A stretch of DNA of 63,335 nt, filler included, from Candidatus Zapsychrus exili (lineage in GTDB: Bacteria; Omnitrophota; Gorgyraeia; Zapsychrales; Zapsychraceae), in NCBI GenBank assembly GCA_030765585.1. It is 7 parts of 7 records of this genome, joined end to end, with 100 filler letters (N's around TTAATTAATTAA, not from the genome) between each part and the next. Parts side by side here need not be neighbours in the genome. Positions count along the whole stretch, not along the records: positions 7,333 to 34,298 come from JAVCCJ010000019.1; 6 more parts are not named here. One strand, given 5' to 3'. The notes beneath the pieces were generated by a model, which saw only the letters and a list, made by a program, of their open reading frames with translations, was not told the origin of the DNA and did no database searches. This document shows positions 7,553 through 34,525 of this stretch, in pieces; the first letter of the stretch is position 1, and the number at the start of each line of letters is the position of its first letter. The translations under genes were made by a program, and so were the position numbers.

Positions 7553-7624
7553 ATTGGTTATGCAATGAGTGGTTGTGGAATTATAAAATAAGTAGTGTTG
7601 TTAAATAAAAAGGTGTTATTTTTG

Positions 7625-9133: not shown

Positions 9134-9151
9134 AGAATCGGAGATAAAGAT

Positions 9152-10135: not shown

Positions 10136-10138
10136 TAT

Positions 10139-11773: not shown

Positions 11774-11777
11774 TAAG

Positions 11778-12488: not shown

Positions 12489-12492
12489 ATAA

Positions 12493-13671
12493 TTGAAAAT
12501 TGATAATCAAAAAAGTGAAACACTGTCAGAAAAAGCAAAATATAGAGTTCCATTTGGAACAGTTTCTATTACAGATAAAGCATCGGAATTAATAAAAGAT
12601 GCGCTTGTTTCTAAGTGGGTTACTCGTGGTAAATATGTTAAAGAGTTTGAAGAGAAATATGCAGAAATTTTTGGGGTAAAGGAAGCCGTTGCATTAAGTA
12701 GTGGTACTGATGCAGACGCATTAGCTTGTGCTGTGCTTTATGATTTTGGCGCAGAGAGAGGCGATGAGATAATCATTCCTGCTTTAACATTTGTTGCAAC
12801 AGCATCTGCAATCTTTCAAGCTGGATTTAAACCAGTGTTTGTTGACGTAGAGCGAGATACTTTAAATATAAATCCTGATAAAATTGAGGCTGCGATAACG
12901 AAAAAAACGCGTGCTATTATGCCAGTTCATTTAATGGGTAAACCAGCTGAAATGGATAAAATAATGGAGTTGGCTCAGAAGTATGATCTTAAAGTTATTG
13001 AAGATGCTGCTGAAGCACATGGAGCGGAATACAAGGGTAAGATGGTTGGCACGATAGGAGATATGGCAGCGTTTAGTCTTTATGCAGCACACATTGTAAC
13101 TACCATAGAAGGCGGAATTGTAATAACTGATAACCTCGAAATAGCCGAGGTTTTGAGATCTCTTCGTAATCATGGCATTGTAAATAAGTTTGAATTTAAA
13201 CGCATTGGTTTCTCAGCTAAAATGCATGAACTTGAGGCAGCTGTTGGACTTGGTAATATTGAGATATTTCAAGATATATTAAATAAACGCAGACGTAATT
13301 TGACATATTTAATTGAGAAATTTAAGAAATTTGATGAGTATTTTATTTATACAAAAGAAGATAGTCACGAAAAAATAGGACCGCATGCATTTGGTATTAT
13401 TTTGCGAGAAGGTTTAAATTTTACTAAAGATGAATTTGTTGATTTCATTGAAAGTAAAGGAGTGGACTCAAGAAATCTTTTCTATTCTATACCAACGCAG
13501 TGTTCGGGTTATGCATTTATGGGATATAGCCTAGGAGATTTTCCTGAGGCTGAATATTGTTCAGATAATGGTTTGCATATTGGGATACATCAGGATATTG
13601 AATTAGAAGACTTAGATTATGTAGAAGAGGTAGTAGTGGAATTTTTAAAAACAAAAGGATTAAAATTTTAA
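12493..13671 (+). CDS. DegT/DnrJ-fold PLP enzyme with His at the catalytic-Lys position (ColD/E1-like)
   Basis: SSGTDA, IEDAAEAHG, SLYAAHIVTTIEGG. Confidence 0.8.
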   Translation: MKIDNQKSETLSEKAKYRVPFGTVSITDKASELIKDALVSKWVTRGKYVKEFEEKYAEIFGVKEAVALSSGTDADALACAVLYDFGAERGDEIIIPALTFVATASAIFQAGFKPVFVDVERDTLNINPDKIEAAITKKTRAIMPVHLMGKPAEMDKIMELAQKYDLKVIEDAAEAHGAEYKGKMVGTIGDMAAFSLYAAHIVTTIEGGIVITDNLEIAEVLRSLRNHGIVNKFEFKRIGFSAKMHELEAAVGLGNIEIFQDILNKRRRNLTYLIEKFKKFDEYFIYTKEDSHEKIGPHAFGIILREGLNFTKDEFVDFIESKGVDSRNLFYSIPTQCSGYAFMGYSLGDFPEAEYCSDNGLHIGIHQDIELEDLDYVEEVVVEFLKTKGLKF

Positions 13672-13675
13672 CATT

Positions 13676-14791
13676 ATGAAGATTGCTATTAATTGTAGAT
13701 CATTTTTAAATAGAAAATATACTGGCATTGGACGCTATGCTTATCATCTGCTTAAAAGTTTAAGCAAGATTGATGAAAAGAATAAATATCTTCTTTATGT
13801 AAAAAAAGGCTTTATAAGTATTAATAAAAGAATGCCAAATTTTGATTCAAAGAATTTCTGCCCAAAAGTCGATTGTTTTGATAAAGGCATGGACAAGACA
13901 TTGGGCAAGGTAGATATTTTTCATTCGCCTTCACCAGATTCTTTGAATATAAATGGTGGCGCTAAAATAATTGTTACGGTTCATGATCTTATATTTAAAA
14001 CCTTTCCCCAGGGACATACTCAAAAAACTTTAGATGATACTGAAAAACAGTTTGAATATATTTGTCAGAGAGCATCTAAAATTATTTGTTGTTCAAAGAA
14101 TACTGTTTCAGATCTAGAAAGTTATTTTAATATAAAGAAAGAAAAGGTATCTTTGGTGTATCAAGGAGTTGATAAGAGCGTATTTTATCCTATTGGAGAA
14201 GATGAATCTAGATTGGCAGATCATGTAATTCGTTCTAAAGGGATTAGAGATCCATTTTTATTGTCGGTTGGAACAATTGAGCCAAGAAAGAATTTAGAAA
14301 ATGTGCTTCAAGCATTTGATAAGTTAAGAACAAGAAGACAATTTTTAGGAAAATTGGTAGTTGTTGGTATGAAGGGATGGATGAGCGATAGCATTGAAGG
14401 TCTTATTCGTAAACTAGAGCTTCGCGATCATGTTATATTTTTAGGGTATTTAACAGATCCAGAATTACGTTTTCTTTATAATAAAGCAGAGGCGCTTGTG
14501 TTTCCATCGTTCTACGAAGGATTTGGTTTTCCAATTGTTGAGGCATTTTGTTGTGGCACACCTGTTGTTACGTCGAATGTTTCTTCTTGCCCTGAAGTTG
14601 CACAAGATGCAGCTATAACCGTTAATCCGTATAGTCCTGAGGCAATTGAACGAGCTATTGATAAGATTGTAAACGATATAGACTTAAAGAAATCATTAAT
14701 AGAAAAAGGATTTAAGAGAGTAGAAGATTTTAGTTTTCATAAAACAGCGCAAGAAACATTAAAAATTTATGAACAAGTTCATAAGTCGTAA
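13676..14791 (+). CDS. Glycosyltransferase family 4
   Basis: TGIGRY, GTIEPRKN, FPSFYEGFGFPIVEA. Confidence 0.92.
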   Translation: MKIAINCRSFLNRKYTGIGRYAYHLLKSLSKIDEKNKYLLYVKKGFISINKRMPNFDSKNFCPKVDCFDKGMDKTLGKVDIFHSPSPDSLNINGGAKIIVTVHDLIFKTFPQGHTQKTLDDTEKQFEYICQRASKIICCSKNTVSDLESYFNIKKEKVSLVYQGVDKSVFYPIGEDESRLADHVIRSKGIRDPFLLSVGTIEPRKNLENVLQAFDKLRTRRQFLGKLVVVGMKGWMSDSIEGLIRKLELRDHVIFLGYLTDPELRFLYNKAEALVFPSFYEGFGFPIVEAFCCGTPVVTSNVSSCPEVAQDAAITVNPYSPEAIERAIDKIVNDIDLKKSLIEKGFKRVEDFSFHKTAQETLKIYEQVHKS

Positions 14792-14863
14792 TTATTGGAT
14801 CCGGCTTGTCTAAAAAGGTACCTGGTTCTTTTTTGCAAAAGGGCCAGGTGCTTTTATACTATT

Positions 14864-15703
14864 ATGAAAATAAGCGGCTTTACAATAGCTCGAAACATAG
14901 TTAAGTACAACTACCCGGTTGTAGAATCTATAAAGTCTATATTGCCTATTTGCAATGAATTTATAGTAAATGTCGGCGACTCAGAAGACAACACTTTAGA
15001 TATAATCAAATCTATAGATAGTAATAAAATTCGTATAGTTGAGAATGAGTGGGATATGTCTATGGGTTCGAATGTTCTTTCTTATCAGACAAATCTTGCG
15101 CTTGAAGAATGTTCTGGTGATTGGGCTTTTTATGTTCAAGGCGATGAAGTAATTCATGAATATGATTTGCTCGTGCTTAAGAAAATTATGACCCATGAAT
15201 TTAAATATGACAATATTGATGCTATACGTTTTCGTTGGTTGCATTTTTATGGAAGTCATTTTAGATATAGGATAGATAAAGGATGGTATCAAAAGCAAGA
15301 TAGAATTATAAGAAATAATGGAGAAATAGAATCTATTGGAGACGCTTATGGTTTCGCAAGAAAAGATGGAGGGGATCTTAAAAGAAGAAAAACAAATTGT
15401 TTTGTTTATCATTATGGATGGGTTCAGCCACAGGATGTTATGAGTAAGCGTCGTAATAATGCAGATAAAATAGGGTTTGTTTTATTAAGTGAAAAACAAA
15501 CAGACAAATATTCTTATGGAGATTTAGATAGGTTTCCTGTTTATTTCGGGACACATCCTAAAGTAATGGAAGAAAAGATAAAAACTCATTTCTTAAGTCA
15601 GCAGGATTATGATTCTATACAAAAGAAATATTGGTGGAATCCACTTAATATTTTAAAGGTGCGATATAAAACAGGCAAAAGAATTAAAGAAAAGATTGAT
15701 TAA
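14864..15703 (+). CDS. Glycosyltransferase family 2-like
   Basis: MKISGFTIARN, VGDSEDNT, QGDE, HYGW; likely start 14864. Confidence 0.85.
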   Translation: MKISGFTIARNIVKYNYPVVESIKSILPICNEFIVNVGDSEDNTLDIIKSIDSNKIRIVENEWDMSMGSNVLSYQTNLALEECSGDWAFYVQGDEVIHEYDLLVLKKIMTHEFKYDNIDAIRFRWLHFYGSHFRYRIDKGWYQKQDRIIRNNGEIESIGDAYGFARKDGGDLKRRKTNCFVYHYGWVQPQDVMSKRRNNADKIGFVLLSEKQTDKYSYGDLDRFPVYFGTHPKVMEEKIKTHFLSQQDYDSIQKKYWWNPLNILKVRYKTGKRIKEKID

Positions 15704-15712
15704 AGGTAAACA

Positions 15713-16783
15713 ATGAAAACAGATGAAAATTTATATGCTCTTATTTTAGCAGGTGGCGCTGGAACACGTTTTTGGCCTAAAAGTCGTCAGTGTAATCCTA
15801 AACAATTCTTAGATATTGTAGGTGTGAATAATCTTTTTGTTCAAACTGTGTCCCGTATAAATAAGAAAATTGCTGTTAAGAATATATTTATAGTTGCAAA
15901 CAAAGATTTTAAGTCTCAGGTTAAAAAGTATATATCAAAATTTAAAATACCTATGGCAAATGTGCTTCTTGAGCCTTCTGCTAAAAATACAGCCGCATCA
16001 ATCTGCTTCGGAGTAGCCCATATTAATTCAATAAACAAGAATGCAGTTGTAGGTGTGTTTCCGTCGGATCACTTGATATCAAAAGAAAAGAAATTTATAA
16101 GCGTGTTAAGCAAGGCTTATCTCCTAGCAAAAGATAATCATCTAGTTACTTTTGGAATAACACCAAGTAGGCCTGAGACAGGATATGGATATCTTAAGGT
16201 AAAGAAACAAAAGATAAAAGGTAAAGATATTCTTAAGGTTAAGGAATTTACAGAAAAGCCGAGCGTAAAGAAAGCAAAAGCCTTTATAAAGAGTAAAAAT
16301 TATTTGTGGAATGGTGGGATATTTGTTTGGAAGGCATCTGTTATATTGGATGAGTTTAAAACATATTTACCAACTACCTTAAAGACAATAGGTCTAAATC
16401 CAACAAATGTGAGTGTTTCTAAAAGTTGGAAGAAATTAAAGAAAGTATCAATTGATTATGGCATTTTAGAAAAAGCAAAAAATATAGTAGCGGTTAATAC
16501 AGGTGATATAGGCTGGTCTGATTTGGGAAGTTGGGAAGCGTTAGCAGATATTTCCAGCAAAGATAAAAATGGAAATATTTTTAATAGTAATGTTGTTTCT
16601 ATAAATTGTAAGAATACTTATGTTTCGGTGAGTGATAAAAAACTTGTTGCTACAATTGGAATAGAGGATTTAGTTATTATTGATACAAAAGATGCTCTTT
16701 TAGTTTGTCCAAAAAATAAATCGCAAGAAGTTAAAGATATGGTATCGGCTTTAAATAAGGGTGGAAAAAAATCTTATTTATGA
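15713..16783 (+). CDS. manC: Mannose-1-phosphate guanylyltransferase
   Basis: LAGGAGTRFWP.SR..PKQF, PSDH, PETGYGY, WSDLGSW. Confidence 0.92.
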   Translation: MKTDENLYALILAGGAGTRFWPKSRQCNPKQFLDIVGVNNLFVQTVSRINKKIAVKNIFIVANKDFKSQVKKYISKFKIPMANVLLEPSAKNTAASICFGVAHINSINKNAVVGVFPSDHLISKEKKFISVLSKAYLLAKDNHLVTFGITPSRPETGYGYLKVKKQKIKGKDILKVKEFTEKPSVKKAKAFIKSKNYLWNGGIFVWKASVILDEFKTYLPTTLKTIGLNPTNVSVSKSWKKLKKVSIDYGILEKAKNIVAVNTGDIGWSDLGSWEALADISSKDKNGNIFNSNVVSINCKNTYVSVSDKKLVATIGIEDLVIIDTKDALLVCPKNKSQEVKDMVSALNKGGKKSYL

Positions 16784-17838
16784 AAAAGATACTTATTATA
16801 AATATATTTGGTATTGGTGATGTTCTTTTTACAATACCTCTTATAAGAAATTTAAAACAAGACTATAAAGATTGCTCCATTGGCTATTTATCAAACAGAA
16901 GGACAGAATTTGTTCTAAATAGTAATCCTTTTGTCGATAAAGTTTTTGTTTATGAGCGCGATGAATTTTATCAATTTTCAAAAGAATCAAAAATATTGTA
17001 TTTTAAAAAGTTCTTTGAACTCATAGGGAATATAAGACAAGAAAAATACGATGTTGTAATTGATGTTTCTTTAAACAGGTTAATGAGTTTTGTTGCATTT
17101 TTAGCTGGTATACCTAAGAGAATAGGTTTTAATTATAAAAATAGAAGTATTTTTCTTAATAAAAAGATTAAATTAGAAGGATATGAAGGTAAACACATTG
17201 TTGAGTATTATCTTGAACTTCTTTGTGAAATAGGAGTTTCTACAGAAAAAAAGGAATTAAAGCTTAATATAAGCAAAGAAGATGACGCTTGGTCTAAAGA
17301 TTTCTTTAATAAAAATGGTATTGAAGGTAAAAATACTATTGCTTTAGTACCAGGAGGCGGGGCAAGCTGGGGGAAAGACGCCAGATATAAGTGTCTACCA
17401 GCCGAAAAATATGCGAAATTAGCTGATAAAATCATTGAAAATTATTCTTTAGATATTATACTGTTGGGTGATGCTAGTGAACATGAATTGTGCATGAAAA
17501 TTGCACATTTAATGGATAAAAAGCCTATTTTAGTAGCAGGAAAGACAACGATAGGTCAGTTTGCCGCATTAGTCTCAAAGTGTCGTTGTGTAGTTTTAAA
17601 CGATGGAGGCCCTTTACACATCTCAGTTGCAGCAGGTGCAAAGACAATTTCTGTTTTTGGTCCAGTAGATGAAAATGTTTATGGTCCTTTTCCTAGCGAT
17701 GGACACATTGTTGTTAAAGCGTCTGTAGTATGTCGCCCTTGTTATAGAAAATTCAGACGTTCTAGTTGCGAGCATATAAGTTGTCTAAATAATATAACAG
17801 TAGAAGATTTATTTAGAAAGGTACAAAGTTTTTTATGA
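16780..17838 (+). CDS. Glycosyltransferase family 9 (heptosyltransferase-like)
   Basis: GIGDVL..P, NDGGPLH, FGP, CRPC. Confidence 0.9.
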   Translation: MKKILIINIFGIGDVLFTIPLIRNLKQDYKDCSIGYLSNRRTEFVLNSNPFVDKVFVYERDEFYQFSKESKILYFKKFFELIGNIRQEKYDVVIDVSLNRLMSFVAFLAGIPKRIGFNYKNRSIFLNKKIKLEGYEGKHIVEYYLELLCEIGVSTEKKELKLNISKEDDAWSKDFFNKNGIEGKNTIALVPGGGASWGKDARYKCLPAEKYAKLADKIIENYSLDIILLGDASEHELCMKIAHLMDKKPILVAGKTTIGQFAALVSKCRCVVLNDGGPLHISVAAGAKTISVFGPVDENVYGPFPSDGHIVVKASVVCRPCYRKFRRSSCEHISCLNNITVEDLFRKVQSFL

Positions 17839-18938
17839 ATATTCCGTTTATTGATTTTAGCGAACAATATAAAATGATTAAAGACGAAATTGATGTTGGT
17901 TTAAAGGAAGTTTTTGAATCGGGAGCTTTTATTTTAGGTCCACAAGAAAAAGCATTTGAAGCAGATTTTTCTGCCTATTGTGATTCAAAGTATGGAATAG
18001 GTGTTAATTCTGGGACAGATGCATTATATTTGGCTTTAGGGGCTTTAGGTGTGCAACCAGGGGATGAAGTAATACTTCCTTCGTTTACATTTATTGCGAC
18101 AGCGCTTTGTATATCTTATACCGGAGCAAAGCCTGTTTTTGTTGAGGTTGAAGACACAACCTATAACATTGATCCAAATAAATTAGAAGCGCTTATTACA
18201 GACAAAACAAAAGTTATTATGCCCGTTCATCTTTATGGACAATGTGCTAATATGGATGAGATTGTGCAAATTGCAAAGAAATATAATATAGCAGTTGTTG
18301 AAGATGCTGCACAGGCTCATGGAGCAATTTATAAGGGTAAAAAAATAGGTTCTTTAGGAGATGTTGCTTGTTTTAGTTTTTATCCTACAAAAAGTTTAGG
18401 TGCTTTTGGCGACGGAGGAATGGTTATAACTAGTAATGAAGAGATAGATAAGAAAGTAAGAATGCTAAGAGACTATGGAAGAGAAGGAAGATATGACCAC
18501 AAAGTAAAAGGCTTTAATTCAAGATTAGATACTGTGCAAGCTGTTGTTTTATCTGCAAAGCTAAAAAGGCTTGATGAGTTTAATAGAATGAGAAATGAAG
18601 CAGCTCAGTATTATTTTAAGATGCTTGAGGGTGTTGACGGCATTGTTGTACCAAAGATTGCAGAGGATAGAACTCACGTATTTCAAACTTTTGGAATTCG
18701 TGTTTTAGAAAATAGAGATGCTGTATTAGATAAAATGAAAGAAAAAGGAGTGGGAGTATTAATTCATTATCCTATACCAGTTCATCTTCAGGAGGCGTAT
18801 AAGGACGCTGGTTACAAAGAAGGAGATCTTCCTGTAACAGAACAAATTGCTAATCAAGTTTTGTCACTTCCAATGTTTCCGCATATAACAAAGGAGCAAA
18901 TTGATTATGTTTGTGATTTACTAAAGAAATGTTTATAA
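17835..18938 (+). CDS. DegT/DnrJ/EryC1/StrS sugar aminotransferase
   Basis: EDAAQAHGA, SFYPTKSLGAFGDGG with catalytic Lys. Confidence 0.93.
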   Translation: MNIPFIDFSEQYKMIKDEIDVGLKEVFESGAFILGPQEKAFEADFSAYCDSKYGIGVNSGTDALYLALGALGVQPGDEVILPSFTFIATALCISYTGAKPVFVEVEDTTYNIDPNKLEALITDKTKVIMPVHLYGQCANMDEIVQIAKKYNIAVVEDAAQAHGAIYKGKKIGSLGDVACFSFYPTKSLGAFGDGGMVITSNEEIDKKVRMLRDYGREGRYDHKVKGFNSRLDTVQAVVLSAKLKRLDEFNRMRNEAAQYYFKMLEGVDGIVVPKIAEDRTHVFQTFGIRVLENRDAVLDKMKEKGVGVLIHYPIPVHLQEAYKDAGYKEGDLPVTEQIANQVLSLPMFPHITKEQIDYVCDLLKKCL

Positions 18939-18964
18939 ACAAAATATAATAAGTTAGGTAAAAA

Positions 18965-19723
18965 ATGGCAAAAGTATCAGTAGTTGTTATAACAAAGAAC
19001 GAAGAAGAAAATATTGGGCCTTGTCTTGCGAGTGTGCATGGTTGGGCAGATGAAATTATAATAGTCGACGACGAAAGTACTGATAATACAGTCGAGGTTG
19101 CAAGCAAATATGCTGATAAGGTGCTTCATAGAAAAATGGAGAATGAAGGTATTCATCGCAATTGGTCTTATGCGCAAGCTTCAAATGAATGGGTATTGAG
19201 TTTAGACGCTGATGAATATGCAACTAAAGAGTTAACAGAAGAAATAACTAAGGCTATAGATGAAGGTAAATATCAAGCGTTCTCTATACCGCTTAAGAAT
19301 TATATAGGAATATATTGGGTCAAGCATGCTGGATGGTATCCAGCTGGTAAGCTTAGACTTTTTATGAGAGATAAATTTAGGTATGAAGAGGTAAAAGTCC
19401 ATCCAAGGGTATTTTTAGACGGAGAAACCGGGCATTTGACAAAAGATATAGTGCATAAAGGCTACCCTAATTTTGAACATTTTCTGCAAAGTTTAAATAG
19501 GCAGACAACGCTAGAGGCTGAGAAGTGGATAATAACAGGAAGAAATATGTCTATGGGAAAAGCTATATGGCGTACCATTGATCGTTTTCCTCGTTCCTAT
19601 ATTGGTAAAGGTGGATGGAAAGATGGATTTATTGGTTTTATGGTTGGTTTCTTTGCTTCACTTTATCAAATCATGAGTTATGCTAAATATTGGCAAATGA
19701 AAAAGGAAAATACTGTTAAATGA
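18965..19723 (+). CDS. Glycosyltransferase family 2 (WaaE/KdtX-like)
   Basis: SVVVITKNEE, DDESTDNT, LDADE. Confidence 0.9.
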   Translation: MAKVSVVVITKNEEENIGPCLASVHGWADEIIIVDDESTDNTVEVASKYADKVLHRKMENEGIHRNWSYAQASNEWVLSLDADEYATKELTEEITKAIDEGKYQAFSIPLKNYIGIYWVKHAGWYPAGKLRLFMRDKFRYEEVKVHPRVFLDGETGHLTKDIVHKGYPNFEHFLQSLNRQTTLEAEKWIITGRNMSMGKAIWRTIDRFPRSYIGKGGWKDGFIGFMVGFFASLYQIMSYAKYWQMKKENTVK

Positions 19724-20313
19724 AATATGTATTCTTAGATAGAGATGGAGTAATAAATGAATTTCCTGGAAACGGGAAATATGTAACTAAGGTTAAGGAC
19801 TTTCATTTTATACCAGGTGTTTTAGATGCTCTTAAAATTTTAACTGATAGAGGTTTTAAAATATTTGTTATATCTAATCAAGCAGGTGTTAGTAGAGGTA
19901 TTTATTCTAAGTTAAAGCTTAATCAGATAACAAAAAAGATGGTTAATGGCGCTAAAAAAGCAGGAGCTAAAATACAAAAGGTACAGTATTGTATACATAA
20001 GTCTGATGATTTATGTGATTGCAGAAAGCCTGGAACAGGCTCTATTGAACGTGCAATGGCATCTGTAGGAAAGCATATAGATGATGCTGAAGATTCGTTC
20101 TTTGTTGGAGATACTAAGTCTGATATTTTAACAGGGTATAACGCAAAGTTAAGAACAATTTTTGTTTTAACTGGTAGAGCTAAACGTCATCATGTAAGAA
20201 AATGGGGAATAAAGCCAGACTTTATTATGGAAGATCTTTATCAAGCTACTCAACTTATTACAATGAAAAATCCTCCTAAAGTTGATAGAAGAGCAAAAAC
20301 AAAAGTTAGATAG
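19720..20313 (+). CDS. gmhB: D,D-heptose 1,7-bisphosphate phosphatase (HAD IIIA)
   Basis: FLDRDGVIN, SNQAG, CxH..CDCRKP, VGD. Confidence 0.85.
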   Translation: MKYVFLDRDGVINEFPGNGKYVTKVKDFHFIPGVLDALKILTDRGFKIFVISNQAGVSRGIYSKLKLNQITKKMVNGAKKAGAKIQKVQYCIHKSDDLCDCRKPGTGSIERAMASVGKHIDDAEDSFFVGDTKSDILTGYNAKLRTIFVLTGRAKRHHVRKWGIKPDFIMEDLYQATQLITMKNPPKVDRRAKTKVR

Positions 20314-24589: not shown

Positions 24590-27500
24590 ATGACTTTGGG
24601 GATTATCAATAATAAGAATAAATTTATACGTAAGACTATTAGTGTGTTTATAACCTTAGCGTTTTCGTGTAATATTGCTTTGCCTGCTTATGCCCAATCT
24701 GCGTTTGCAAATAATCCTATTGTTCTTGGCACAACATTTACTCCAGCTGTGATAAAGGGCTTGAGAGTATCTGTAGACAATCCTTTAAAATTTAATTTTA
24801 TAGTAGATAGGGGAGGCTTTGAAGGCGCAGAGCTAAAGGGTGAATATACAAAGTTGATAAAATATTTTTTAGCATCGCTTACTACAAAAGAAGATGATAT
24901 GTGGGTCAATTTAAATCCTCGCGAACAAAATCGTATTATTCCTCAAAGTTTCGGGCAAACAGAAATGGGACGAGATCTCTTATCGCAAGACTATCTTTTA
25001 AAACAAATAACATCTTCTTTAATGCATCCAGAAGGTGAGGTTGGTAAGAAATTCTGGGATGAAATATATGCGCAGACTTATCAAAAGTATGGAACAACAG
25101 ATGTTGATGTTGATACATTAAATAAAGTTTGGATTGTTCCGAATAAATCTGTGGTCTACGAAAATGAAGGTAAGGCCTTTATAGTTGAGGCAAATTTGAA
25201 GGTTATGTTAGAGGAAGAATATTTAGATAGTAGGCAGTATACAGTAGGCAATAGGCAACAAAAATCTTTGCCAACTGCCAACAGCCAACTGCCAACTCAA
25301 ATTATTAAAAATATAATTATTCCTAAGCTCGAGCAAGAAGTAAATAACGGAGAGTATTTTGCTCCATTACGTCAAATCTACCACTCTCTAATATTGGCTG
25401 TTTGGTATAAGCAAAAATTAAAAAATGGTATTTTGTCTAAGCTTTATGTAGATAAAGGCAAGATAGCTGGAGTTGATATAGAAGATAAGCAGGAATTTAA
25501 GAAAATATATAATAAGTATGTTGAGACGTTTAAAAAGGGTGCTTATAGTTACATAAAGGAAGAGTATGACCCTACCACTCAATCGATTATTCCAAAGAAG
25601 TATTTTTCTGGTGGTGCCACGCTTAAGCCGAATTTAGAGATAGTAGATTACATGGACCCTGCTTTACTTGTAGATAAAAAGAATATTGACGATGTTGAGG
25701 TTGATTTGGCTATGTTAGGTAAAGATAAAGGCGATATTGAAAAATTAAAGAAATCTTTAAACAAAATAAAAGATGAAGTCAAGGTTCAGATTTTTGAAGA
25801 TATGGGAATTTTTATTCATGACATAATGAAGGAGATATTTCCGTTACAAATGGTAGAGATATTTTTAGGCACAGCTTTAGTAAACATTAGTGAAAGCGAA
25901 GATATTCATGCGCAGATTTCAGATTTAAGAAATTCATTAGACAAAATAATTAATATAACTAATGATGTGCAAACCGCAGTTTTTGAGGCGCTTGAGCAGT
26001 ACAGTGTTACTGATGAAGATATTGACAATATTAGATTAGGTGGTTCTTTAAAGAATTTTAAAAATGATATGCGCAATAAATTAATAGAATTGACACAAGG
26101 TGCGATTAATGAAAAAACTTTAATAGCAGAAGAAGCTCGTGAAAGAATGCAGGAGCTTTTTGATAGAAATCAATCTTTGTTTGATAGTGTATTTAAAATT
26201 TTAGATAAACATATAAAAAATTCTAAAATAAGAGAAGACATAGATTTATACCATTTTACATTTTTATTTGATTTTTTAAGAAAGGGGTTAAAAGAAAAAG
26301 TTGAATCGTCTTTTTTTGATTTAAATAGTATTGTGTCTTACGCTTTACGAATAGCGAGCAATAAGTTTCATTCGCCTGCCAATATAGAGGTAATTGTTGA
26401 TTATCCAAAAAATCTTTCTGATATTAATGCAGATAAGGTACAGATTTATAAGGTATTGTTAAACATGTTATATAATGCGTATGAAGAACTTGAAGAGCAC
26501 AAGGAATTAAAGGGAATTATTAAAATAAGTGTTGAGGAAGATAGAAATGAAAATATTGTCATAAAAATTATTGATTCAGGTAGAGGAATGCCTAAAAAAA
26601 TAAGAAAAAAAGTTCTTAAAGACTATGGCGCTACAACAAAGAAAGGCGGAAGTGGTATAGGTGTTTTTGGATCAAAACAAAAGATAATCAAGGGCTTGGG
26701 AAAATTTAATATTAAAAGTATAGAGGAAACAAAAAACAAAGCAGGAAACACGACCGTTATAATAACAATTCCAAAGGATTACGAAAAAAGAGCAGCAGAA
26801 TACAAAAGAAGACTTTTTTCGGTTGATAAGATTAGATCAATATTAAGAGTGGCTGAAGGATGGCTTGTTAATTTTAAAGGAAATAAGTTTATTCCAACCA
26901 TGTTTGCTAAGCGCCAAAAGTCCATTTTTGCTAAAAGACAAGTAATCAAAACAGAAGTTTTGTCAGTCGACAAAATTAAGTTAAGTTTAGAAGAGTTTGG
27001 GAAATTGTTTAATAATCTTAATGAAGCCCTTGTCGATAGTGAAGGCGAAGTTGAAGATATAAAAGAGATTATAGAATTGAATTATGAAATAATAACTGAA
27101 GAAGCTGGAAACTCTGACGTAGAAGAAAATATCTTATTTGATTTATTTATAAGTTTCTTAAAGAGTATTGGTGATGCAATTAGAAGGGGTATAGACGAAA
27201 AACATCTTGATGCGAATATTGTGGCTGTTAAGGAAATACAAGAATACTTAGGTTTAACTTTAAGTGAAAATGATAATGTTTTAAAACAAGATAAGGCTAT
27301 GATAGTAAATCAAGAAAATGAGCAAGGCGCTATCAAGGCTGCAGATGTTTTTAAGCTTTTTAATGATGTTCAAAAAGAGTTTGCCTCTGTAGAATTTTTA
27401 GATAAAGTTGTTAAAGAAATTGTGAAAGAAAATGATAATTTTGTAAAAGAAGCGCAAGAGATATCAAATAAATTAAAGGAATTTATTAGTAGTTACTCAG

Positions 27501-28057
27501 AGATATTGTTAGATCACAATTTAAATATATTAAACGATTATGCCGAGAAAAATAGCATGACATTTCTAGATGATGAAGCACTTGAGCTTGTAGTTCCAAA
27601 ACTTACAAGAGAAAGAATTTCGTTTAATATTTTCGCGTATAATGATTATGCTACACACGCAATAGCAACTATAAAAGATAGAATAGAAAATTTTAATGGG
27701 TTTGAGGAGGCTATAAAAGATACAGCAAAGAATAAATTTGACACTAAGTTTGAAATAGAAGATATTGCTAAATTTTTGCCATTACTAGAAAAAGGTTTAA
27801 GCGGAAGCTTACCATTAGATGATAAAGCTATGATAGCAAAACAAGTTAATGAAAAAAGAGTTGGTGGTATTGATTTGACTAAAGATAGACTTGATTTAGA
27901 TATTAAATCAGAAAATAGCTTTGATTTTGATATAGATTTAAATGGTGTTAAAGAAGCTGATATTAATGGTTTTATGCCTGTAATTATTCATATTTTACCA
28001 ATAAATAATCTGCCGCTTTTCTTAGGCTTATCTAAAAAAGATAAAACTACTTCTTAA
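24590..28057 (+). CDS. Large secreted modular protein: conserved N-domain, histidine-kinase module, unknown module, GGIDL tail
   Basis: Signal peptide (AYA|Q); N-terminal ~340 aa clearly homologous to the 31115 ORF; H/N/G1/G2 boxes; DLAM, DKAM, DKAM separators. Confidence 0.85.
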   Translation: MTLGIINNKNKFIRKTISVFITLAFSCNIALPAYAQSAFANNPIVLGTTFTPAVIKGLRVSVDNPLKFNFIVDRGGFEGAELKGEYTKLIKYFLASLTTKEDDMWVNLNPREQNRIIPQSFGQTEMGRDLLSQDYLLKQITSSLMHPEGEVGKKFWDEIYAQTYQKYGTTDVDVDTLNKVWIVPNKSVVYENEGKAFIVEANLKVMLEEEYLDSRQYTVGNRQQKSLPTANSQLPTQIIKNIIIPKLEQEVNNGEYFAPLRQIYHSLILAVWYKQKLKNGILSKLYVDKGKIAGVDIEDKQEFKKIYNKYVETFKKGAYSYIKEEYDPTTQSIIPKKYFSGGATLKPNLEIVDYMDPALLVDKKNIDDVEVDLAMLGKDKGDIEKLKKSLNKIKDEVKVQIFEDMGIFIHDIMKEIFPLQMVEIFLGTALVNISESEDIHAQISDLRNSLDKIINITNDVQTAVFEALEQYSVTDEDIDNIRLGGSLKNFKNDMRNKLIELTQGAINEKTLIAEEARERMQELFDRNQSLFDSVFKILDKHIKNSKIREDIDLYHFTFLFDFLRKGLKEKVESSFFDLNSIVSYALRIASNKFHSPANIEVIVDYPKNLSDINADKVQIYKVLLNMLYNAYEELEEHKELKGIIKISVEEDRNENIVIKIIDSGRGMPKKIRKKVLKDYGATTKKGGSGIGVFGSKQKIIKGLGKFNIKSIEETKNKAGNTTVIITIPKDYEKRAAEYKRRLFSVDKIRSILRVAEGWLVNFKGNKFIPTMFAKRQKSIFAKRQVIKTEVLSVDKIKLSLEEFGKLFNNLNEALVDSEGEVEDIKEIIELNYEIITEEAGNSDVEENILFDLFISFLKSIGDAIRRGIDEKHLDANIVAVKEIQEYLGLTLSENDNVLKQDKAMIVNQENEQGAIKAADVFKLFNDVQKEFASVEFLDKVVKEIVKENDNFVKEAQEISNKLKEFISSYSEILLDHNLNILNDYAEKNSMTFLDDEALELVVPKLTRERISFNIFAYNDYATHAIATIKDRIENFNGFEEAIKDTAKNKFDTKFEIEDIAKFLPLLEKGLSGSLPLDDKAMIAKQVNEKRVGGIDLTKDRLDLDIKSENSFDFDIDLNGVKEADINGFMPVIIHILPINNLPLFLGLSKKDKTTS

Positions 28058-28065
28058 TTATTCTA

Positions 28066-28092
28066 TTGACAAATTCTGTAGTTGTGTATAAT
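28066..28092 (+). promoter_or_regulatory. Probable gap promoter
   Basis: TTGACA-15 nt-TATAAT (short spacer, TG-rich before -10). Confidence 0.5.
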
Positions 28093-28163
28093 ACAAGCAT
28101 TGATTTATTTTACCAAAGAGGGTAAAATTTTAATCATAAAGTTTAATTATTGTAATTATTTAA

Positions 28164-29171
<1,008 letters not shown>

Positions 29172-29195
29172 AAGCAGGGATTAATAAATAGATTG

Positions 29196-29232
29196 AAAAA
29201 GGGGGCTTAAAAAAGCCACCCTTTTTCTTTTT
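29196..29232 (+). terminator. Intrinsic terminator after gap
   Basis: AAAAAGGGGGCTT...AAGCCACCCTTTTTCTTTTT. Confidence 0.7.
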
Positions 29233-29268
29233 ATTGACAGTTTTTGGCTTTTAAGCTATATAAGTTAT

Positions 29269-30339
29269 ATGTCTACACAGCTTACAAAATCAGCTTACCA
29301 GCAACTTTTAACGGATATATCTTATATTTATCAAGAAGCTAAAGAACGCTCTAACAAAATAGTCGATTCTATACTTACCAAGGCTTATTGGGAAATTGGT
29401 AAGAAAATAGTAGAAATTGACCAAGGCGGACAAGAAAGAGCTTCTTATGATAAGCAAATAATAGAAAAACTTTCTGAAGGTCTTACAGAGCGCCTTGGAA
29501 AAGGTTTTTCTGTTGAAAATTTAAGAAAAATGAGACGTTTTTATATCTCTTACCCAATTCGGTCGGCGCCGACCGAATTGGATTGGACTAGATATAAAGT
29601 GCTTTCTGCCGTAAAAGAAGACTACAAACGCACATATTATGAACGTGAAGCTATAAAGAATGACTGGAGCTCTCGCGATCTTATTCAAGTTATCAAAGCA
29701 GATAGGGTGGCTCACGAACCTTTTAGAGAGCACACAGAAAAGCCTCAAGAATTAATGCAAGACCCTAAATTGAAGATGACGAGGGGTGCACTTTACACGT
29801 ATTCTTTAATTGAATCTGAAATATTGAATAAAAGCGACAAAGCGCCCAAGCTATTGGTAGACTGTGGATTTGGTGTTGCCCGTCACGTTATAGAACATTT
29901 TGAAGGCTTTAGTAGCGGTGATATTATAGAGTCTAGAAAATCGAACAAGTTTTTTAAGATAATGCCAAGCTCTTACAGGAAAGACGAACTGTTTACTTAC
30001 ATTGCTTATGTGTCAGATATTATTGATGGAGATACTATTTGGTGTCAGATCGATTTAGGGTTTGGAACTTGGACTAAACAAAAGCTTCGTTTTCGTGGGA
30101 TTGATGCGTCAGAGATTAATACTCAAAGAGGTGAGCGAGCACGTGAATTTGTAAAGAAAGAATTAAAGTCATTGCCGTTTATTATTGTTAAAACTTATAA
30201 AGAAGATAAATATGGCCGCTATTTGGCAGATATATTTTATAGTGATACTTCCGACGACCCAGAGGATGTAGCAACGCACGGAAAATTCTTAAATCAAATT
30301 TTAGTTGACGGAAATCTAGCAAAGATCTATAACTATTGA
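29269..30339 (+). CDS. DUF1016 (YhcG) N-terminal domain fused to thermonuclease (SNase) domain
   Basis: YWEIGKKI, GKGFSVENLRKMRRFY; C-terminal IIDGDT, LRFRGIDASE, DKYGRYLAD. Confidence 0.85.
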   Translation: MSTQLTKSAYQQLLTDISYIYQEAKERSNKIVDSILTKAYWEIGKKIVEIDQGGQERASYDKQIIEKLSEGLTERLGKGFSVENLRKMRRFYISYPIRSAPTELDWTRYKVLSAVKEDYKRTYYEREAIKNDWSSRDLIQVIKADRVAHEPFREHTEKPQELMQDPKLKMTRGALYTYSLIESEILNKSDKAPKLLVDCGFGVARHVIEHFEGFSSGDIIESRKSNKFFKIMPSSYRKDELFTYIAYVSDIIDGDTIWCQIDLGFGTWTKQKLRFRGIDASEINTQRGERAREFVKKELKSLPFIIVKTYKEDKYGRYLADIFYSDTSDDPEDVATHGKFLNQILVDGNLAKIYNY

Positions 30340-30432
30340 TATAAAATGACTTTTATCTTTAGTATTAACTTTTTAACATATGTCGATTAATAATAAATTG
30401 TTTTTTAAACATATTAAATAGAGGATATAGAC

Positions 30433-30624
30433 ATGGGACGCATTGCTTCTAAAATTAAAAAAGTTGCAACAAGTATGACTAGAAGAAGAACTTTAGTTAA
30501 GAAACCACAAGTTACAGATGAGATGATTGCACAAAAGGCTTATGAGCTTTATGAAAGCCGAGGTAGTAATCATGGCGGAGATTTTGATGATTGGGCTGAA
30601 GCTAAGAAAATACTAGGCATTTAA
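30433..30624 (+). CDS. DUF2934 small protein
   Basis: IAQKAYELYESRG...DDWAEA. Confidence 0.85.
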   Translation: MGRIASKIKKVATSMTRRRTLVKKPQVTDEMIAQKAYELYESRGSNHGGDFDDWAEAKKILGI

Positions 30625-30650
30625 AATATATTTAATAAATAAATTTCTTT

Positions 30651-30691
30651 AAGGCGACAACTTCTTTTTAAAAGAAAATGTCGCCTTTTTG
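30651..30691 (+). terminator. Intrinsic terminator
   Basis: AAGGCGACA...TGTCGCCTTTTT. Confidence 0.7.
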
Positions 30692-30848
30692 TTTAGGGGT
30701 TGCGCCCTTTGGGCGGGCGGGTATGACCCCTTTCTTTTTGGCTTGCTCACCACAGCGATATAGAACTATATTTTATAATATTAATATTTATCTCTTTTTA
30801 ATATATTTCTTTAAGTCCATTATTAGCAGTAGTTTATATATAATAATC

Positions 30849-30924
30849 TATATATAAAGCAACCGCTTTCCTAAAAATACCTAAATACCCCCTAAAACCC
30901 ATATATATATATATTATACTTTTA
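30849..30924 (+). promoter_or_regulatory. Conserved upstream element of the modular secreted protein gene (copy 2)
   Basis: TATATATAAAGCAACCGCTTTCCTAAAA...TATACTTTTA. Confidence 0.65.
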
Positions 30925-30936
30925 ATGAGCTCTAAG

Positions 30937-31092
30937 CTTACGTAACGAGTTTTTGAACGAGTGAACGTAAGTTTGTTGAGCGAATTAACCCCGCAAGCGT
31001 GAGCGAAACGAACATCGCGGGGTAATATGTACTAATTAAACAAGATCCCTCGCTTACGCTCGGGATAAATTTGTCTCGTAAAATACGAGACT
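30937..31092. repeat. Cluster of four short palindromic REP-like elements in a 5' leader
   Basis: CTTACGT..ACGTAAG; ACCCCGC..GCGGGGT; AGATCCCTCGCTTACGCTCGGGAT; GTCTCGTA..TACGAGAC. Confidence 0.7.
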
Positions 31093-31114
31093 CATTTAAA
31101 GGATTAAGGATCAA

Positions 31115-34100
31115 GTGACTTTAAGGGGCGGCATTATCAAAAGATCACCAATATACAAAGTAATATCAATACTTATCATAGTATCCTTTTCTTTGTCTAC
31201 TATCACTCCTGTATCTTTTGCTCAACAATCTATACCAGTTCAGTCATTATTAATACCTAACGCTAGTGTAGGTTCAGCTACAATCATAAAAGGTCTTAAG
31301 TTATATCCAGAAAATCCTTTAAAGTTTGATTTTATTATTGATCAGGGAGGTATCGAAGGCAAAAGGCAAAAGGTAAAAGGTAAAGGTGAAGAGGAAGCCC
31401 TTAGATTTAAAACCGAATCAAAGAAGCTCATTAAGTACTTTTTAGCATCTTTAACAACTAAAGAAAGTGATTTATGGGTTAATTTAAATCCTAAACAGCC
31501 GGATAGGATCATACCTGATAAGTTTGGGTCTACTGAAATGGGTCGTGATTTATTGGCTCAAGACTATATCTTAAAACAAATAACAGCTTCTCTAATGCAT
31601 CCTGAAGGAGAAATGGGTAAGAAGTTTTGGGGCAAGATATATAAACAAGCCTATGAGCAATATGGAATCTCTGATGTAGACACTGATGTATTAAATCGTG
31701 TTTGGATAGTGCCTGAAAAGGCAGTAGTGTATGAAGCGGAAGATAGAGCTTTCGTTGTAGAAAGTAGGCTTAAAGTATTGTTGGAAGAAGAGTATCTAGA
31801 TCCTAGACCCTTGATACTAGATACTAGACAAAAAACAAAACAAAATATACCAGCATCCAGCATACTAGAATCTAGCATCATAAAATCAGTCATCATTCCT
31901 GCATTAGAACAAGAGGTAAATGAGGGAGAATCTTTTGCACCGCTTCGCCAGATATACAATTCTCTTATATTGGCCACTTGGTATAAACGAAATCTAAAAG
32001 AATCTCTTCTGGGACGCAAATATGTTGATAAAGACAAGGTGATAGGGCTAGAGATACAAGATAAAAGTAGTCAGTCTACAGTTGACAGTAGGCAAAAAAT
32101 AACAAATAATTTCTTGCCAACTGCCAATCGTCAACTGCAAACTCCAGAAGAAATCTACAACCAATACCTCAAAACTTTTAAAGATGGTGCTTATAACTAT
32201 ATAAAAGAAGAGTATAATCCAGCAACCAAACAAATAATCCCTAAAAAATATTTCTGCGGCGGTAAAGACTTTGCAATGATAAGCAAGGTTCTAAAGACGT
32301 TTGATAAAAACATAAATCCTAAGCGTTCTAAATTATTTGGGAAATATCTAGCTGTTACGGCTGCTCTCGTATTAACATCGGTTGTATTTTCAGTTAATGG
32401 TCAAGATGTTTCTTCAGTTGAAATTTTTGGTCAAGAAAAGAGATTGGCAAATACGACAGTTATTGTTTCTAAAAAGGATAAAGCTTATTGGATAAAGTTG
32501 GCTAAAGAAGATCCATGGAAAATATTGGACAAAATAGGTGAGCTTAAAGATTTTTCTTGGGGAATTGAAATAATGGAAATAGTTACAGAAGAAATTCCAT
32601 ATACAGTAATTTATAATCTCCCTAAGATTATTGAAGTTTTTAGAATAGAAAAAACATTTAATTTAATAGAAATAGCGGCAGAGAATGCCCCAAGCTTAGT
32701 GATTCGCAAGGCTCACAATTTTGTTAAAATTTTAGGACAAGAAAAAGCATTTGATTTAATAGAAATAGCGGCAGAGAATGCCCCAGATGTAGCATTTTAT
32801 AGTCTTCGTAGGCTTATCAAAATATTTGGAAAAGAAAAAGCACTTGGCCTGGCAACAATAGCCTTAGAAAACGATCCAAAATATGCGCATAAAAAACACA
32901 ATAAACTTTCTCGTTTGTTTAATTTATCTGATGATTTCTTTAAGGAGTTCATCGAGAATAATTTAGATTTATTTTTATCTCCAGGAGTCAATATCTCTAA
33001 AATAAAATTGCAGTATAGAATCTTTTTAGAAGATACGCCATTTAAAGAGCCTATTGATATAAGGACAGAGCATATTAATATGTCAGGTGAACAAAAAATT
33101 TCTCTTACTGTTGCGGCTATTCGTTTATGTCGTATGTTAGATATTTCATTTCAAAATTTGGACTATTTCAGTGCGGCTGTTGATTGTATTCTTGAGTTAA
33201 GAGAGGAATCTGATAAAAATATTATTTTTGGTAAAGAAATTTCTATCATTAATGTTGCAAATATTGAGTCTCGGTTTGATATAAGTGCAATGGAATCATT
33301 TGAGACTTCTGCTGGTGCATTATTAGAAAATATTCAATCATTTAAAGAAGGTGTGGATTCTAAAATGGATATGCTCGATGCCATTAAGGCTTCAAAAGGA
33401 TTGTTGACAATTTTTTATTCAGGTCACGGAGAGAAGGCTTATCTGGATTCATGGTATGGTATTACTTATCAGCGACTTGGAGACGCTCTTATTGCAAGAG
33501 GAGATATCGAAAGTGTAAATATATTAAATTTTAGTTGTTTTTCGTATAATTTTATTAAAAATCTTAAAAATTATTTAATAGAAAAAGGTCACTCCATACC
33601 TAAGTTTATGTCATCTGAAGCAAATAAAAATGATTTTGGAGTAGGAGGAACTTTATCAGGTTTTCTTGCAGAGATACAAGCGCAAAGGAATAAAAATGGG
33701 AGAGCATCAGAGCCTGTTCGCTCATCAGATTTTATTAATGGAGAGACTCCAAATGTATTTGTTTATCAGGACCCAGCATTTTTTTATGGAATTAGGTCTG
33801 AAGAGTTTAAAAAGTTTGTAGAAAAACATTTCGGACAGTTATTATTGCATGAGAAATTAATAGAAATATTTAACGAAATAGATTCATTGCCTAGCATTAT
33901 GATAGAAATAGGAGACGCGGCAAAGCCATTAGAAAACAATCCAGATGTACCACTGCTTGCGTTAGCAGAGACTTTTGAATATAAACTTTCTGACTTGTCT
34001 GATGTTGGAGTTAAAGATCAGGCGATGGTGGCTGATGAAAATAATATTTCTCAATTAGTTAGTTATGACTTCTCAAAAGAGGAGTGGTTTAAAAGAGCAC

Positions 34101-34298
34101 ATCGTTCAGAATTATATCATAATGTAAAACATTCAGTTCGCACTGGCTTATCTGTATATAATCTAGCAATTGCAAGAAATATGGGAGCCATAGAAGCTGA
34201 AGGAGATATATTGGTTTTTTGCGATAGCCGGCTACAACCTGATAAAGATTCGTTGTTAATGTTTCAGCAAGCGATTGAACACGCTGGAGAGATTACAA
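31115..34298 (+). CDS. Large secreted modular protein, paralog of 24590; truncated at contig end
   Basis: Signal peptide (SFA|Q), shared N-domain, DFAM and DQAM separators, 31-aa helical repeats, YSGHG...SCFS. Confidence 0.85.
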
Positions 34299-34398
34299 NN
34301 NNNNNNNNNNNNNNNNNNNNNNNNNNNNNNNNNNNNNNNNNNTTAATTAATTAANNNNNNNNNNNNNNNNNNNNNNNNNNNNNNNNNNNNNNNNNNNN
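34299..34398. other. Artificial contig linker
   Basis: N44-TTAATTAATTAA-N44. Confidence 0.99.
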
Positions 34399-34525
34399 GA
34401 GCTTTATACGGGCTTTACAGATAATCTGGAAAGACGCATAGGAGAGCATAATAGAGGAGAAGAGCCGTCAACAAGGCCCAGAGTGCCGTTTGAATTGATT
34501 TACTTTGAGGGATGTTTAAATAAAA
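34399..34525 (+). repeat. 127-bp terminal direct repeat of contig 3 (left copy)
   Basis: Identical to 39434-39560. Confidence 0.95.

Follow-up and report, generated by a model that had tools for sequence, protein, structure and literature searches.

Two genes of Candidatus Zapsychrus exili belong to a large modular multi-enzyme protein family of Omnitrophota with conserved ends and a D-x-A-M junction motif

A family of modular multi-enzyme proteins

In a 63,335-nucleotide stretch of DNA from Candidatus Zapsychrus exili (the window), two genes, gene 1 (protein P0001) and gene 2 (protein P0002), encode members of a modular multi-enzyme protein family of the Omnitrophota that is very large and has not been described before, an assignment that is held with high confidence. 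The architecture of the family, of which we are equally sure, consists of a Sec-type signal peptide, a conserved N-terminal domain of ~300 amino acids (aa; the N-domain), a variable string of complete enzyme or regulatory modules, and a conserved C-terminal tail of ~80 aa; a short motif, D-x-A-M, recurs at the junctions. Multi-enzyme proteins of long to giant size typify this phylum, and two preprints that describe them leave processing and cut sites open in the portions available to us (10.1101/2023.11.21.568195; 10.64898/2026.06.07.730766). The head and tail of the present family are defined by sequence and can be converted into hidden Markov models (HMMs), while the short junction motif predicts exact new N-termini and may mark where the long proteins are cut. 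The spare copies of glycolytic enzymes that some members carry behind a signal peptide bear, in addition, on the feeding of ultra-small, possibly predatory bacteria.

Genes 1 and 2 align by BLASTP with 202 identities over 381 positions (53%, E 2e-122), from the signal peptide to the sequence KKYFSGG (aa 342) in gene 1 and KKYFCGG (aa 383) in gene 2, beyond which no significant BLASTP similarity between the two was detected; the shared signal peptide and N-domain announced in an earlier reading of the window (the original prediction) are thus both present. Gene 1 scores E 6.7e-162 against the N-domain HMM and E 2.4e-22 against that of the tail. Gene 2 starts with a GTG codon, at the place where homolog P0006 begins MTLRGGIIKRSPIYKV, and lacks a tail because the end of the contig cuts its open reading frame (ORF) at 34299, which is an assembly effect. 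Positions 7333-34298 of the window correspond to one contig of 26,966 bases, in an assembly of 2.04 Mb and 129 contigs that is 96% complete, and are followed at 34299-34399 by a run of N, the TTAATTAATTAA spacer and a second run of N; the window being stitched from separate contigs, gene 2 and whatever comes after it are not truly adjacent.

The N-domain is matched by no Pfam or NCBIfam model. A word-indexed search with it gave 3227 matches among 5140 scored candidates (635-2022 aa), whose named sources are nearly all Omnitrophica or Omnitrophota, and an exhaustive HMMER scan of 1.84 billion representatives recovered 7818 clusters at E <=1e-3, 7316 of them at E <=1e-10. In every one of the 150 HMMER matches listed the N-domain starts at approximately residue 4-78, and the best 150 are each 53-69% identical to the query, a flat profile that indicates strong constraint. 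The domain is present in 69 of the 301 sampled genomes of the phylum (69/69 in the class of the Zapsychrus genome), with candidate counts that reach 80 per genome in a first-look scan, and the ESM Atlas returned unnamed Omnitrophota clusters only. The AlphaFold2 (AF2) model of the N-domain has a predicted local distance difference test score (pLDDT) of 70.6, and shows a mixed alpha/beta arrangement with long helices, residues 335-365 being disordered. No usable match to this model was found by Foldseek in the PDB (best E 0.18) or in BFVD (best E 0.08), nor by VIA-align over 48,161 chains (maximum Z 4.2); this result speaks neither for nor against a new fold.

Within the Zapsychrus genome itself, HMM searches identify 16 ORFs with an N-domain, plus one fragment, and 16 ORFs with a tail, the two elements occurring together in 9 ORFs. 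Among the 7 N-domain ORFs that have no tail in the same frame, 3 reach a contig end, and in 3 one stop codon or overlapping frames separate the ORF from the next, the tail being present in 2 of these next ORFs; the last, L023, is complete and has none. The 24 family ORFs together encode 32,364 aa; with their 97 kb they take up 4.7% of the 2.04-Mb genome. Single in-frame stops, one each of TAA, TAG and TGA, interrupt the family genes at C39:1810-1812, C67:1614-1616 and on contig C83, and frame overlaps interrupt two more, on C73 and C119; the tail is found in the next ORF in four of these five cases, and the fifth, on C83, reaches the contig end. The C83 interruption lies on the minus strand, after an ORF of 2027 aa. 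Errors in the assembly, decay and read-through are all candidate causes of such interruptions.

The family spans a considerable range of lengths. The shortest member with a tail has 627 aa, and an "empty carrier", in which the N-domain would be followed directly by the tail, was not encountered among 15 proteins of less than 640 aa. At the other extreme, N-domain and tail are also found on open frames of 8365 and 16391 aa. A further open frame of 9937 aa in the Zapsychrus genome (G000:C24:37451-67261) contains 6 D-x-A-M (0.6 per 1000 aa), and matches neither the N-domain nor the tail HMM.

The D-x-A-M junction motif

The five D-x-A-M sites that had been noticed in the window, three in gene 1 and two in gene 2, are all present (Table 1), and the motif is far more frequent than in shuffled controls. 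In 120 homologs (147,367 aa), 210 occurrences were counted, compared with 14.8+-3.8 in residue shuffles and a maximum of 26 in 200 such shuffles, which corresponds to a 14-fold enrichment and a z of ~50. The shuffle rate is ~0.1 per 1000 aa, so that ~0.1 sites are expected per window gene, where 3 and 2 are seen. The family ORFs of the Zapsychrus genome carry 2.50 D-x-A-M per 1000 aa, and the other 1561 ORFs of at least 150 aa carry 0.081, a 31-fold difference between the family and the remaining proteome. Near-variants occur at background levels in the 120 homologs (D.AL 60, D.AV 60, D.AI 33, E.AM 15, N.AM 15, and D.MA 6); with the Leu, Val and Ile forms at background, the motif is Met-specific. 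In this genome it extends to D-[NKQE]-A-M-[VILM]-[ATS]-[DENK]; the short linkers that join the modules of the family carry D-x-A-M-[VILM]-[AST]. Asp is encoded by GAT (61) or GAC (20), and Ala by all four codons (GCA 41, GCG 28, GCT 9, GCC 3), a variation that points to selection on the peptide, as was argued in the original prediction.

The location of the motif at module boundaries, also anticipated there, holds when sites are compared with Pfam envelopes. Among 85 sites in 29 proteins, 80 lie outside Pfam stretches and 5 within, where 21.2 would be expected from coverage (P 4e-6). D-x-A-M falls precisely at the junctions of GAPDH, PGK, enolase and aldolase in one paralog of the Zapsychrus genome, and likewise at those of UDPGP, PFK and PGI in another, and it often directly follows HATPase_c. 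The DLAM of gene 1 falls in a low-confidence stretch of the AF2 model (residues 341-376, block means 32-51), with values below 50 in segments 335-365 and 373-376. In addition, the motif Met is placed 3-17 aa ahead of Pfam model position 1 for PGK, enolase, PFK, guanylate kinase and adenylate kinase (ADK), and 54 aa ahead of it for PGI, distances that we take to agree with the native N-termini of these six enzymes.

The same position can be followed in other assemblies. Of 18 long proteins that bear PGK, 6 have the motif Met no more than 5 aa away from the place where the PGK module is projected to begin, and in the 6 PGK proteins that carry the N-domain but lack D-x-A-M this very spot is occupied by a sequence rich in Ser and Pro, often SSP. 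Among members without the motif, no 3-mer is more enriched than SSP (45 occurrences, 7.4 expected). This sequence pattern suggests lineage-specific junction words, D-x-A-M here and SSP elsewhere, and is to be taken only as a lead.

The tail and a predicted head-tail clasp

The tail, for which alignments give the consensus D-x-A-M..GGIDLN..L.L......G.P.I..I.P...L..LLG, is as conserved as the N-domain. Where both elements were scanned, in 16 genomes, 12 have both, 2 have neither, 2 have the N-domain only and none has the tail only. Folded alone, the tail has a pLDDT of 64.5 and a predicted template-modeling score of 0.22, with no stable fold predicted. Complex predictions of N-domain plus tail, however, score 0.76, 0.72 and 0.63, while the best of three controls scores 0.00; among solved complexes 116 of 157 attain the mark applied to these scores, and among mismatched pairs 2 of 215, counts that are only a rough guide for the clasp, for which custom alignments were used. 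At least 44% of contacts agree between runs, with a partner pLDDT of at least 45. In the predicted interface, GGIDL is placed on W181-P184, L260-Y264 and D134, the next segment of the tail pairs with strand 186-194, and GFMPVII is also in contact; 15 of the 42 invariant columns of the N-domain are found among the 68 interface residues, a modest enrichment over the ~9 expected.

Head and tail are thus predicted to form one two-piece clasp, the tail being set in a groove of the N-domain, from which the cargo is looped out. The idea of a carrier formed by a single conserved N-terminal domain is therefore retained as far as the N-domain goes and revised in its extent: with a tail that is equally conserved and that, by prediction, binds the N-domain, the carrier is made of two parts.

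Many tails include a second, internal (I/F)-D-P-A-M-L approximately 25 aa past GGIDL, which accounts for many of the DPAM matches. In some members (P0146, P0131 and P0002) the motif directly follows YFSGG or its variant (SGGIDWAM, SGGTDLAM and CGGKDFAM, respectively), and the resulting sequence resembles the GGID of the tail. This echo may, speculatively, be the trace of a cargo insertion into a once-continuous protein.

Cargo modules

Sequences downstream of the N-domain are extremely varied among homologs, in agreement with the proposal of a conserved carrier with swappable cargo. The modules include methyltransferases, GNATs, HATPase_c, PPDK_N, ADK, B12-radical SAM proteins, GT2, PEPCK, Glu dehydrogenase, peptidase M3, GDSL lipase, PP2C, HEAT and mTERF; nucleotide kinases, NUDIX, HTH arrays and DnaJ are also found across the family. 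In the Zapsychrus genome, a paralog of 2991 aa (L032) strings together two GAPDH, PGK and enolase with a domain resembling class II aldolase, and a second paralog combines UDPGP, PFK, an RNA polymerase alpha C-terminal domain (CTD) and PGI; the remaining paralogs bear HTH arrays, guanylate kinase and NUDIX. The glycolytic modules contain what we take to be signature words of these enzymes (ASCTTN twice, RVDFNVP and SHRSGET). Standalone genes for GAPDH, PGK, enolase, PFK and PGI also exist in this genome and are 25-38% identical to the modules, the window GAPDH (28179-29171) being 33-36% identical to both GAPDH modules of L032; the modules therefore represent an extra set. The 18 long proteins with PGK modules measure 1687-5059 aa, and 14 of them carry the N-domain; the partners of PGK vary and include PGM, phosphoglycerate mutase, enolase, ADK, PGI, TIM, isocitrate lyase and malate synthase.

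Signal peptides and topology

A simple hydropathy rule, that is, a charged start followed by a hydrophobic core, is obeyed by 81 of 95 anchored members, and an A/Q cleavage-like site follows the core in 72 of the 95. The predicted signal peptide of gene 1 has a K/R-rich start, a hydrophobic core and an A-x-A sequence. Hydropathy scans indicate that transmembrane (TM)-like segments are absent from the cargo in 148 of 181 members. P0001 shows no such segment from its signal peptide up to the tail, and P0002 has one, at aa ~407 (Kyte-Doolittle hydropathy 1.85). This hydrophobic segment of gene 2 (32330-32400, aa ~404-426) is preceded by K/R, comes right after DFAM and resembles a signal peptide, as if the module appeared to keep an N-terminal targeting sequence of its own.

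Proposed export and processing, and competing explanations

A tentative scheme that accommodates these features, to which we assign slightly less than an even chance, is one of export followed by processing. The chain would be exported through Sec, and the predicted clasp would serve as a common handle by which all members are anchored, sorted or passed on. The junction motif would be a processing site, with the cut falling between Ala and Met, and the likely cutter would be a periplasmic peptidase of the Ser/Lys-dyad type that cleaves after Ala; S41 and S26 peptidases are both encoded in the genome. The freed enzymes, each beginning with its own Met, would then act outside the cytoplasm, in the cell coat or on or in prey. 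A bolder extension, which is improbable on present evidence, is that the class exports entire pathways, with a second glycolysis set that looks catalytically intact, nucleotide kinases and regulators made as clasp-held Sec polyproteins that are cut at coded junctions (D-x-A-M, or SSP in other lineages). Were it true, such export would set up a metabolism that handles ATP beyond the cytoplasm, either in the coat or inside prey, and the same junction code would tell the cut points of the giant proteins of the phylum.

Several observations weigh against this scheme of export and processing. The motif is strongly enriched and yet not universal, so that its role as punctuation is upheld only in part: 44 of 194 members have none, it occurs within 70 aa after the N-domain in only 98 of 181 members and within 35 aa before GGIDL in only 61 of 144 tails (chance ~0.5% in each case), and a member of 8365 aa is entirely devoid of it, in view of which processing at such sites could be obligatory only if their sequence varied from lineage to lineage. 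In the 16391-aa frame D-x-A-M is sparse, and no other clearly enriched word was found in either frame. One site (DPAM) is located deep inside a GNAT domain, and the other four Pfam-covered sites lie within 10 aa of a domain edge. All-versus-all BLAST endpoints are equivocal: alignment ends cluster near the motif (0.174 and 0.298, versus 0.063 and 0.087), but starts do not cluster after it (0.019, versus 0.059 at random); this set is contaminated by tail-adjacent matches, and the Pfam-envelope test was used in its place. The clasp is a matter of model confidence, obtained from custom unpaired alignments and with an uncertain partner fold. As to the cutter, S41 and S26 peptidases occur in 10 and 12 of 14 control genomes, respectively, and are thus common enzymes, and Asp at position -3 is atypical for signal peptidase I. 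Finally, enzymes that depend on ATP, NAD or S-adenosylmethionine, as well as HTH domains and the RNA polymerase alpha CTD, have no obvious periplasmic use.

The absence of the motif from many members, and from the 8365-aa protein, is what would be expected if whole, uncleaved chains formed or decorated an extracellular coat or surface layer as an enzyme scaffold of fixed arrays, with D-x-A-M as a structural linker such as a helix cap. The clasp would then tie both ends of the chain to one base, the order GAPDH, PGK, enolase in L032 follows the pathway as in a channelled array, and an extracellular coat made by a giant Omnitrophota protein has been proposed in the sections of Seymour et al. 2023 available to us. 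A cap or linker role, nonetheless, explains neither the strict requirement for Met, given that Leu, Val and Ile stay near background, nor the coincidence of this Met with native enzyme starts, nor the appearance of a different motif at the same place in other lineages; the scaffold is thus rather unlikely, if a serious contender. The nature of the cargo raises another possibility, as glycolytic enzymes, nucleotide kinases, NUDIX, methyltransferases, GNATs, HTH arrays, the RNA polymerase alpha CTD and DnaJ are all of cytoplasmic type, and the organism keeps standalone glycolytic copies for itself: the clasp could be a translocation device that injects cargo into the cytoplasm of a host or prey, where it would be released in the manner of MARTX toxins. 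The predatory or parasitic lifestyles proposed for Omnitrophota, according to the same portion of Seymour et al. 2023, would suit such effector delivery, which the original prediction had suggested. In neither N-domain nor tail, however, do Pfam and NCBIfam recognise a domain of a translocon, a pore former or a secretion system, and fold searches with the N-domain model add none; the window genes are not flanked by genes for secretion, and the organism has no known host, all of which renders this explanation doubtful.

The Met specificity and its position at native enzyme N-termini could also be understood if the motif Met were an internal translation start, from which separate modules lacking a signal peptide would be made in the cytoplasm. 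Shine-Dalgarno-like words, however, precede 15% of 81 motif ATGs; the remaining internal Met codons show the same proportion (15-17%), whereas proxy true starts reach 42%, a much higher value. Uninterrupted frames, moreover, extend to as much as 2991 aa, the conservation of Asp and Ala ahead of Met would be unexplained, and standalone cytoplasmic copies already exist. Internal starts are accordingly disfavoured, and very improbable. As for chance, compositional bias or a mis-assembled chimera, it is true that the window consists of concatenated contigs, that gene 2 is cut short and that some family genes of the assembly are split by stops or frameshifts; a z of ~50 over shuffles, and the recurrence of one architecture in thousands of proteins from many sources and in 69 genomes, have already refuted such an artefact for practical purposes. 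Export with processing at the junctions is retained as the working proposal, with the reserve expressed above.

Relation to known systems

The closest precedents are the giant Omnitrophota proteins termed "Archaeovorins", which contain the same types of cargo, whose glycolytic domains are predicted to be extracellular, and whose cleavage points are stated to be unknown in the part of the preprint at our disposal (West-Roberts et al. 2023, bioRxiv 10.1101/2023.11.21.568195). "Multi-enzyme metabolic cluster" giants with signal peptides have also been catalogued, as judged from excerpts of a second preprint (2026, bioRxiv 10.64898/2026.06.07.730766). As far as both texts go, these giants and the present family have in common the phylum, N-terminal signal peptides and the question of cleavage, and they share HATPase_c, methyltransferase, GNAT, HAD, NUDIX, PPDK_N, radical SAM, HEAT and glycolytic cargo; a signal peptide with tiled unrelated enzyme domains, which is a trait of the Archaeovorin type, is found in the family. 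Archaeovorins, however, have at least ~10,000 aa, whereas the proteins considered here have 0.6-4 kaa, and the window genes 1155 and >1061 aa; they also possess many TM helices along the chain, of which P0001 has none and P0002 one, by hydropathy only. The claim that this type of protein had not been characterized must therefore be narrowed: signal-peptide-bearing giants with multiple enzymes appear in the two preprints, while the N-domain, the tail and the junction motif are not mentioned in the consulted text of these or of Seymour et al. 2023. A literature search pairing Omnitrophota with polyprotein gave no match, and one with GGIDL-type strings gave nothing relevant among the papers listed.

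More distant systems display part of the same logic. MARTX toxins are secreted by the type I pathway, contain glycine-rich repeats and cut themselves after Leu by means of a built-in cysteine protease domain. As in the family, conserved ends bracket swappable, unrelated domains, and the MARTX effectors are freed by cleavage of linkers; the proteins described here, unlike MARTX, have a Sec-type signal peptide and largely housekeeping-type cargo, and no match to RTX-type repeats, a type I signal or Peptidase_C80 was obtained with Pfam or NCBIfam at E <=0.1. TpsA and CdiA proteins also combine a signal peptide, a conserved N-terminal domain of ~250-300 aa and a long variable region, the N-terminal domain serving as a common secretion handle. 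This TPS domain is a beta-helix (PF05860), for which there is no Pfam match in the family, the AF2 model of the N-domain being alpha/beta with long helices; to our knowledge, TpsA proteins also differ from the family in lacking a conserved C-terminal partner element. Cargo of type IX secretion is alike in its signal peptide, its variety and its conserved C-terminal element of ~80-100 aa. Neither Pfam nor NCBIfam, however, detects a Por_Secre_tail or TIGR04183-type sorting domain, and the family tail, in contrast to type IX elements, is predicted not to fold alone and to bind its own N-domain.

Peptidases with a Ser/Lys dyad that cut after Ala include signal peptidase I (A-x-A), birnavirus VP4 and CtpA, which processes D1 at D-L-A/A. 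Their sites resemble D-x-A-M in that position -1 is small and position -3 is defined, and the D1 site itself reads D-x-A. We know of no requirement of these peptidases for Met at +1, and the likeness lies in the cleavage site.

Features of genes 1 and 2 and their surroundings

The features of the two genes are collected in Table 1. The "histidine-kinase module" that had been proposed for gene 1 is substantiated as to its catalytic part: HATPase_c (PF02518) is recognized in module A at aa 615-729 (E 3.5e-13, 50.4 bits against a cut-off of 26.4 bits), and catalytic domains of histidine kinases in the PDB are matched at E 2.8e-7. A HisKA-type dimerisation domain, however, gave no Pfam match in gene 1 at E <=0.1, and NCBIfam histidine kinase models match the C-terminal part only and far under their cut-offs. 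Module B has no match in Pfam, NCBIfam or PDB sequences, and neither the 177 collected proteins nor the ORFs of its own genome include a homolog of it. The "peptidase" label given to the cargo module of gene 2 finds no support at the level of sequence, where searches of Pfam, NCBIfam and the PDB returned no match to a peptidase domain, the clan CD (caspase-like) type with its His/Cys dyad included, although a remote resemblance of fold could still exist; part of P0116 is 29% identical to this module over 254 aa. The third module of gene 2 reaches E 0.01 and 16.3 bits against PF00535, below the 23.3-bit cut-off.

Table 1. Coordinates of genes 1 and 2 and of their features, in window positions
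Feature	Gene	Position	Strand	Description
Gene 1 (P0001)	1	24590..28057	+	1155 aa; complete family member
Predicted Sec signal peptide	1	24590..24694	+	aa 1-35; AYA/Q end; by inspection
Conserved N-domain	1	24695..25615	+	aa 36-342; KKYFSGG end
Junction motif DLAM	1	25703..25714	+	aa 372-375
Cargo module A	1	25712..27289	+	aa 375-900; histidine-kinase-type ATPase domain
Junction motif DKAM	1	27290..27301	+	aa 901-904
Cargo module B	1	27299..27820	+	aa 904-1077; no known family
Junction motif DKAM	1	27821..27832	+	aa 1078-1081; 10 aa ahead of GGIDL
C-terminal tail	1	27863..28054	+	GGIDL...GFMPVI...LPLFLGL; tail HMM and alignment
Gene 2 (P0002)	2	31115..34298	+	>1061 aa; family member cut off at contig end
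Predicted signal peptide	2	31115..31222	+	aa 1-36; SFA/Q end; by inspection and family pattern
Conserved N-domain	2	31223..32263	+	aa 37-383; HMM E 3.3e-151; two insertions relative to gene 1
Junction motif DFAM	2	32267..32278	+	aa 385-388; 1 aa past YFCGG
Cargo module	2	32276..34015	+	aa 388-967; TM-like segment, ~37-aa repeats, then unassigned region
Junction motif DQAM	2	34016..34027	+	aa 968-971
Third module, start	2	34025..34298	+	weakly glycosyltransferase-2-like; cut by contig end

The window genes that flank genes 1 and 2 are concerned with lipopolysaccharide (LPS)/glycan synthesis or encode priA, fmt, a standalone GAPDH and a DUF1016 protein, and no secretion apparatus is found among these neighbours. 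The GAPDH, a housekeeping protein of 330 aa (28179-29171), is located directly downstream of gene 1. The ~775 bases upstream of gene 2 (30340-31114) contain no ORF of at least 80 aa, frame 1 having 17 stops. Further upstream, positions 7595-20313 harbor a sugar-nucleotide and glycosyltransferase cluster that includes GT1, GT2, a GT9 heptosyltransferase, two DegT aminotransferases and two nucleotidyl transferases, and which is consistent with a diderm envelope of the LPS type.

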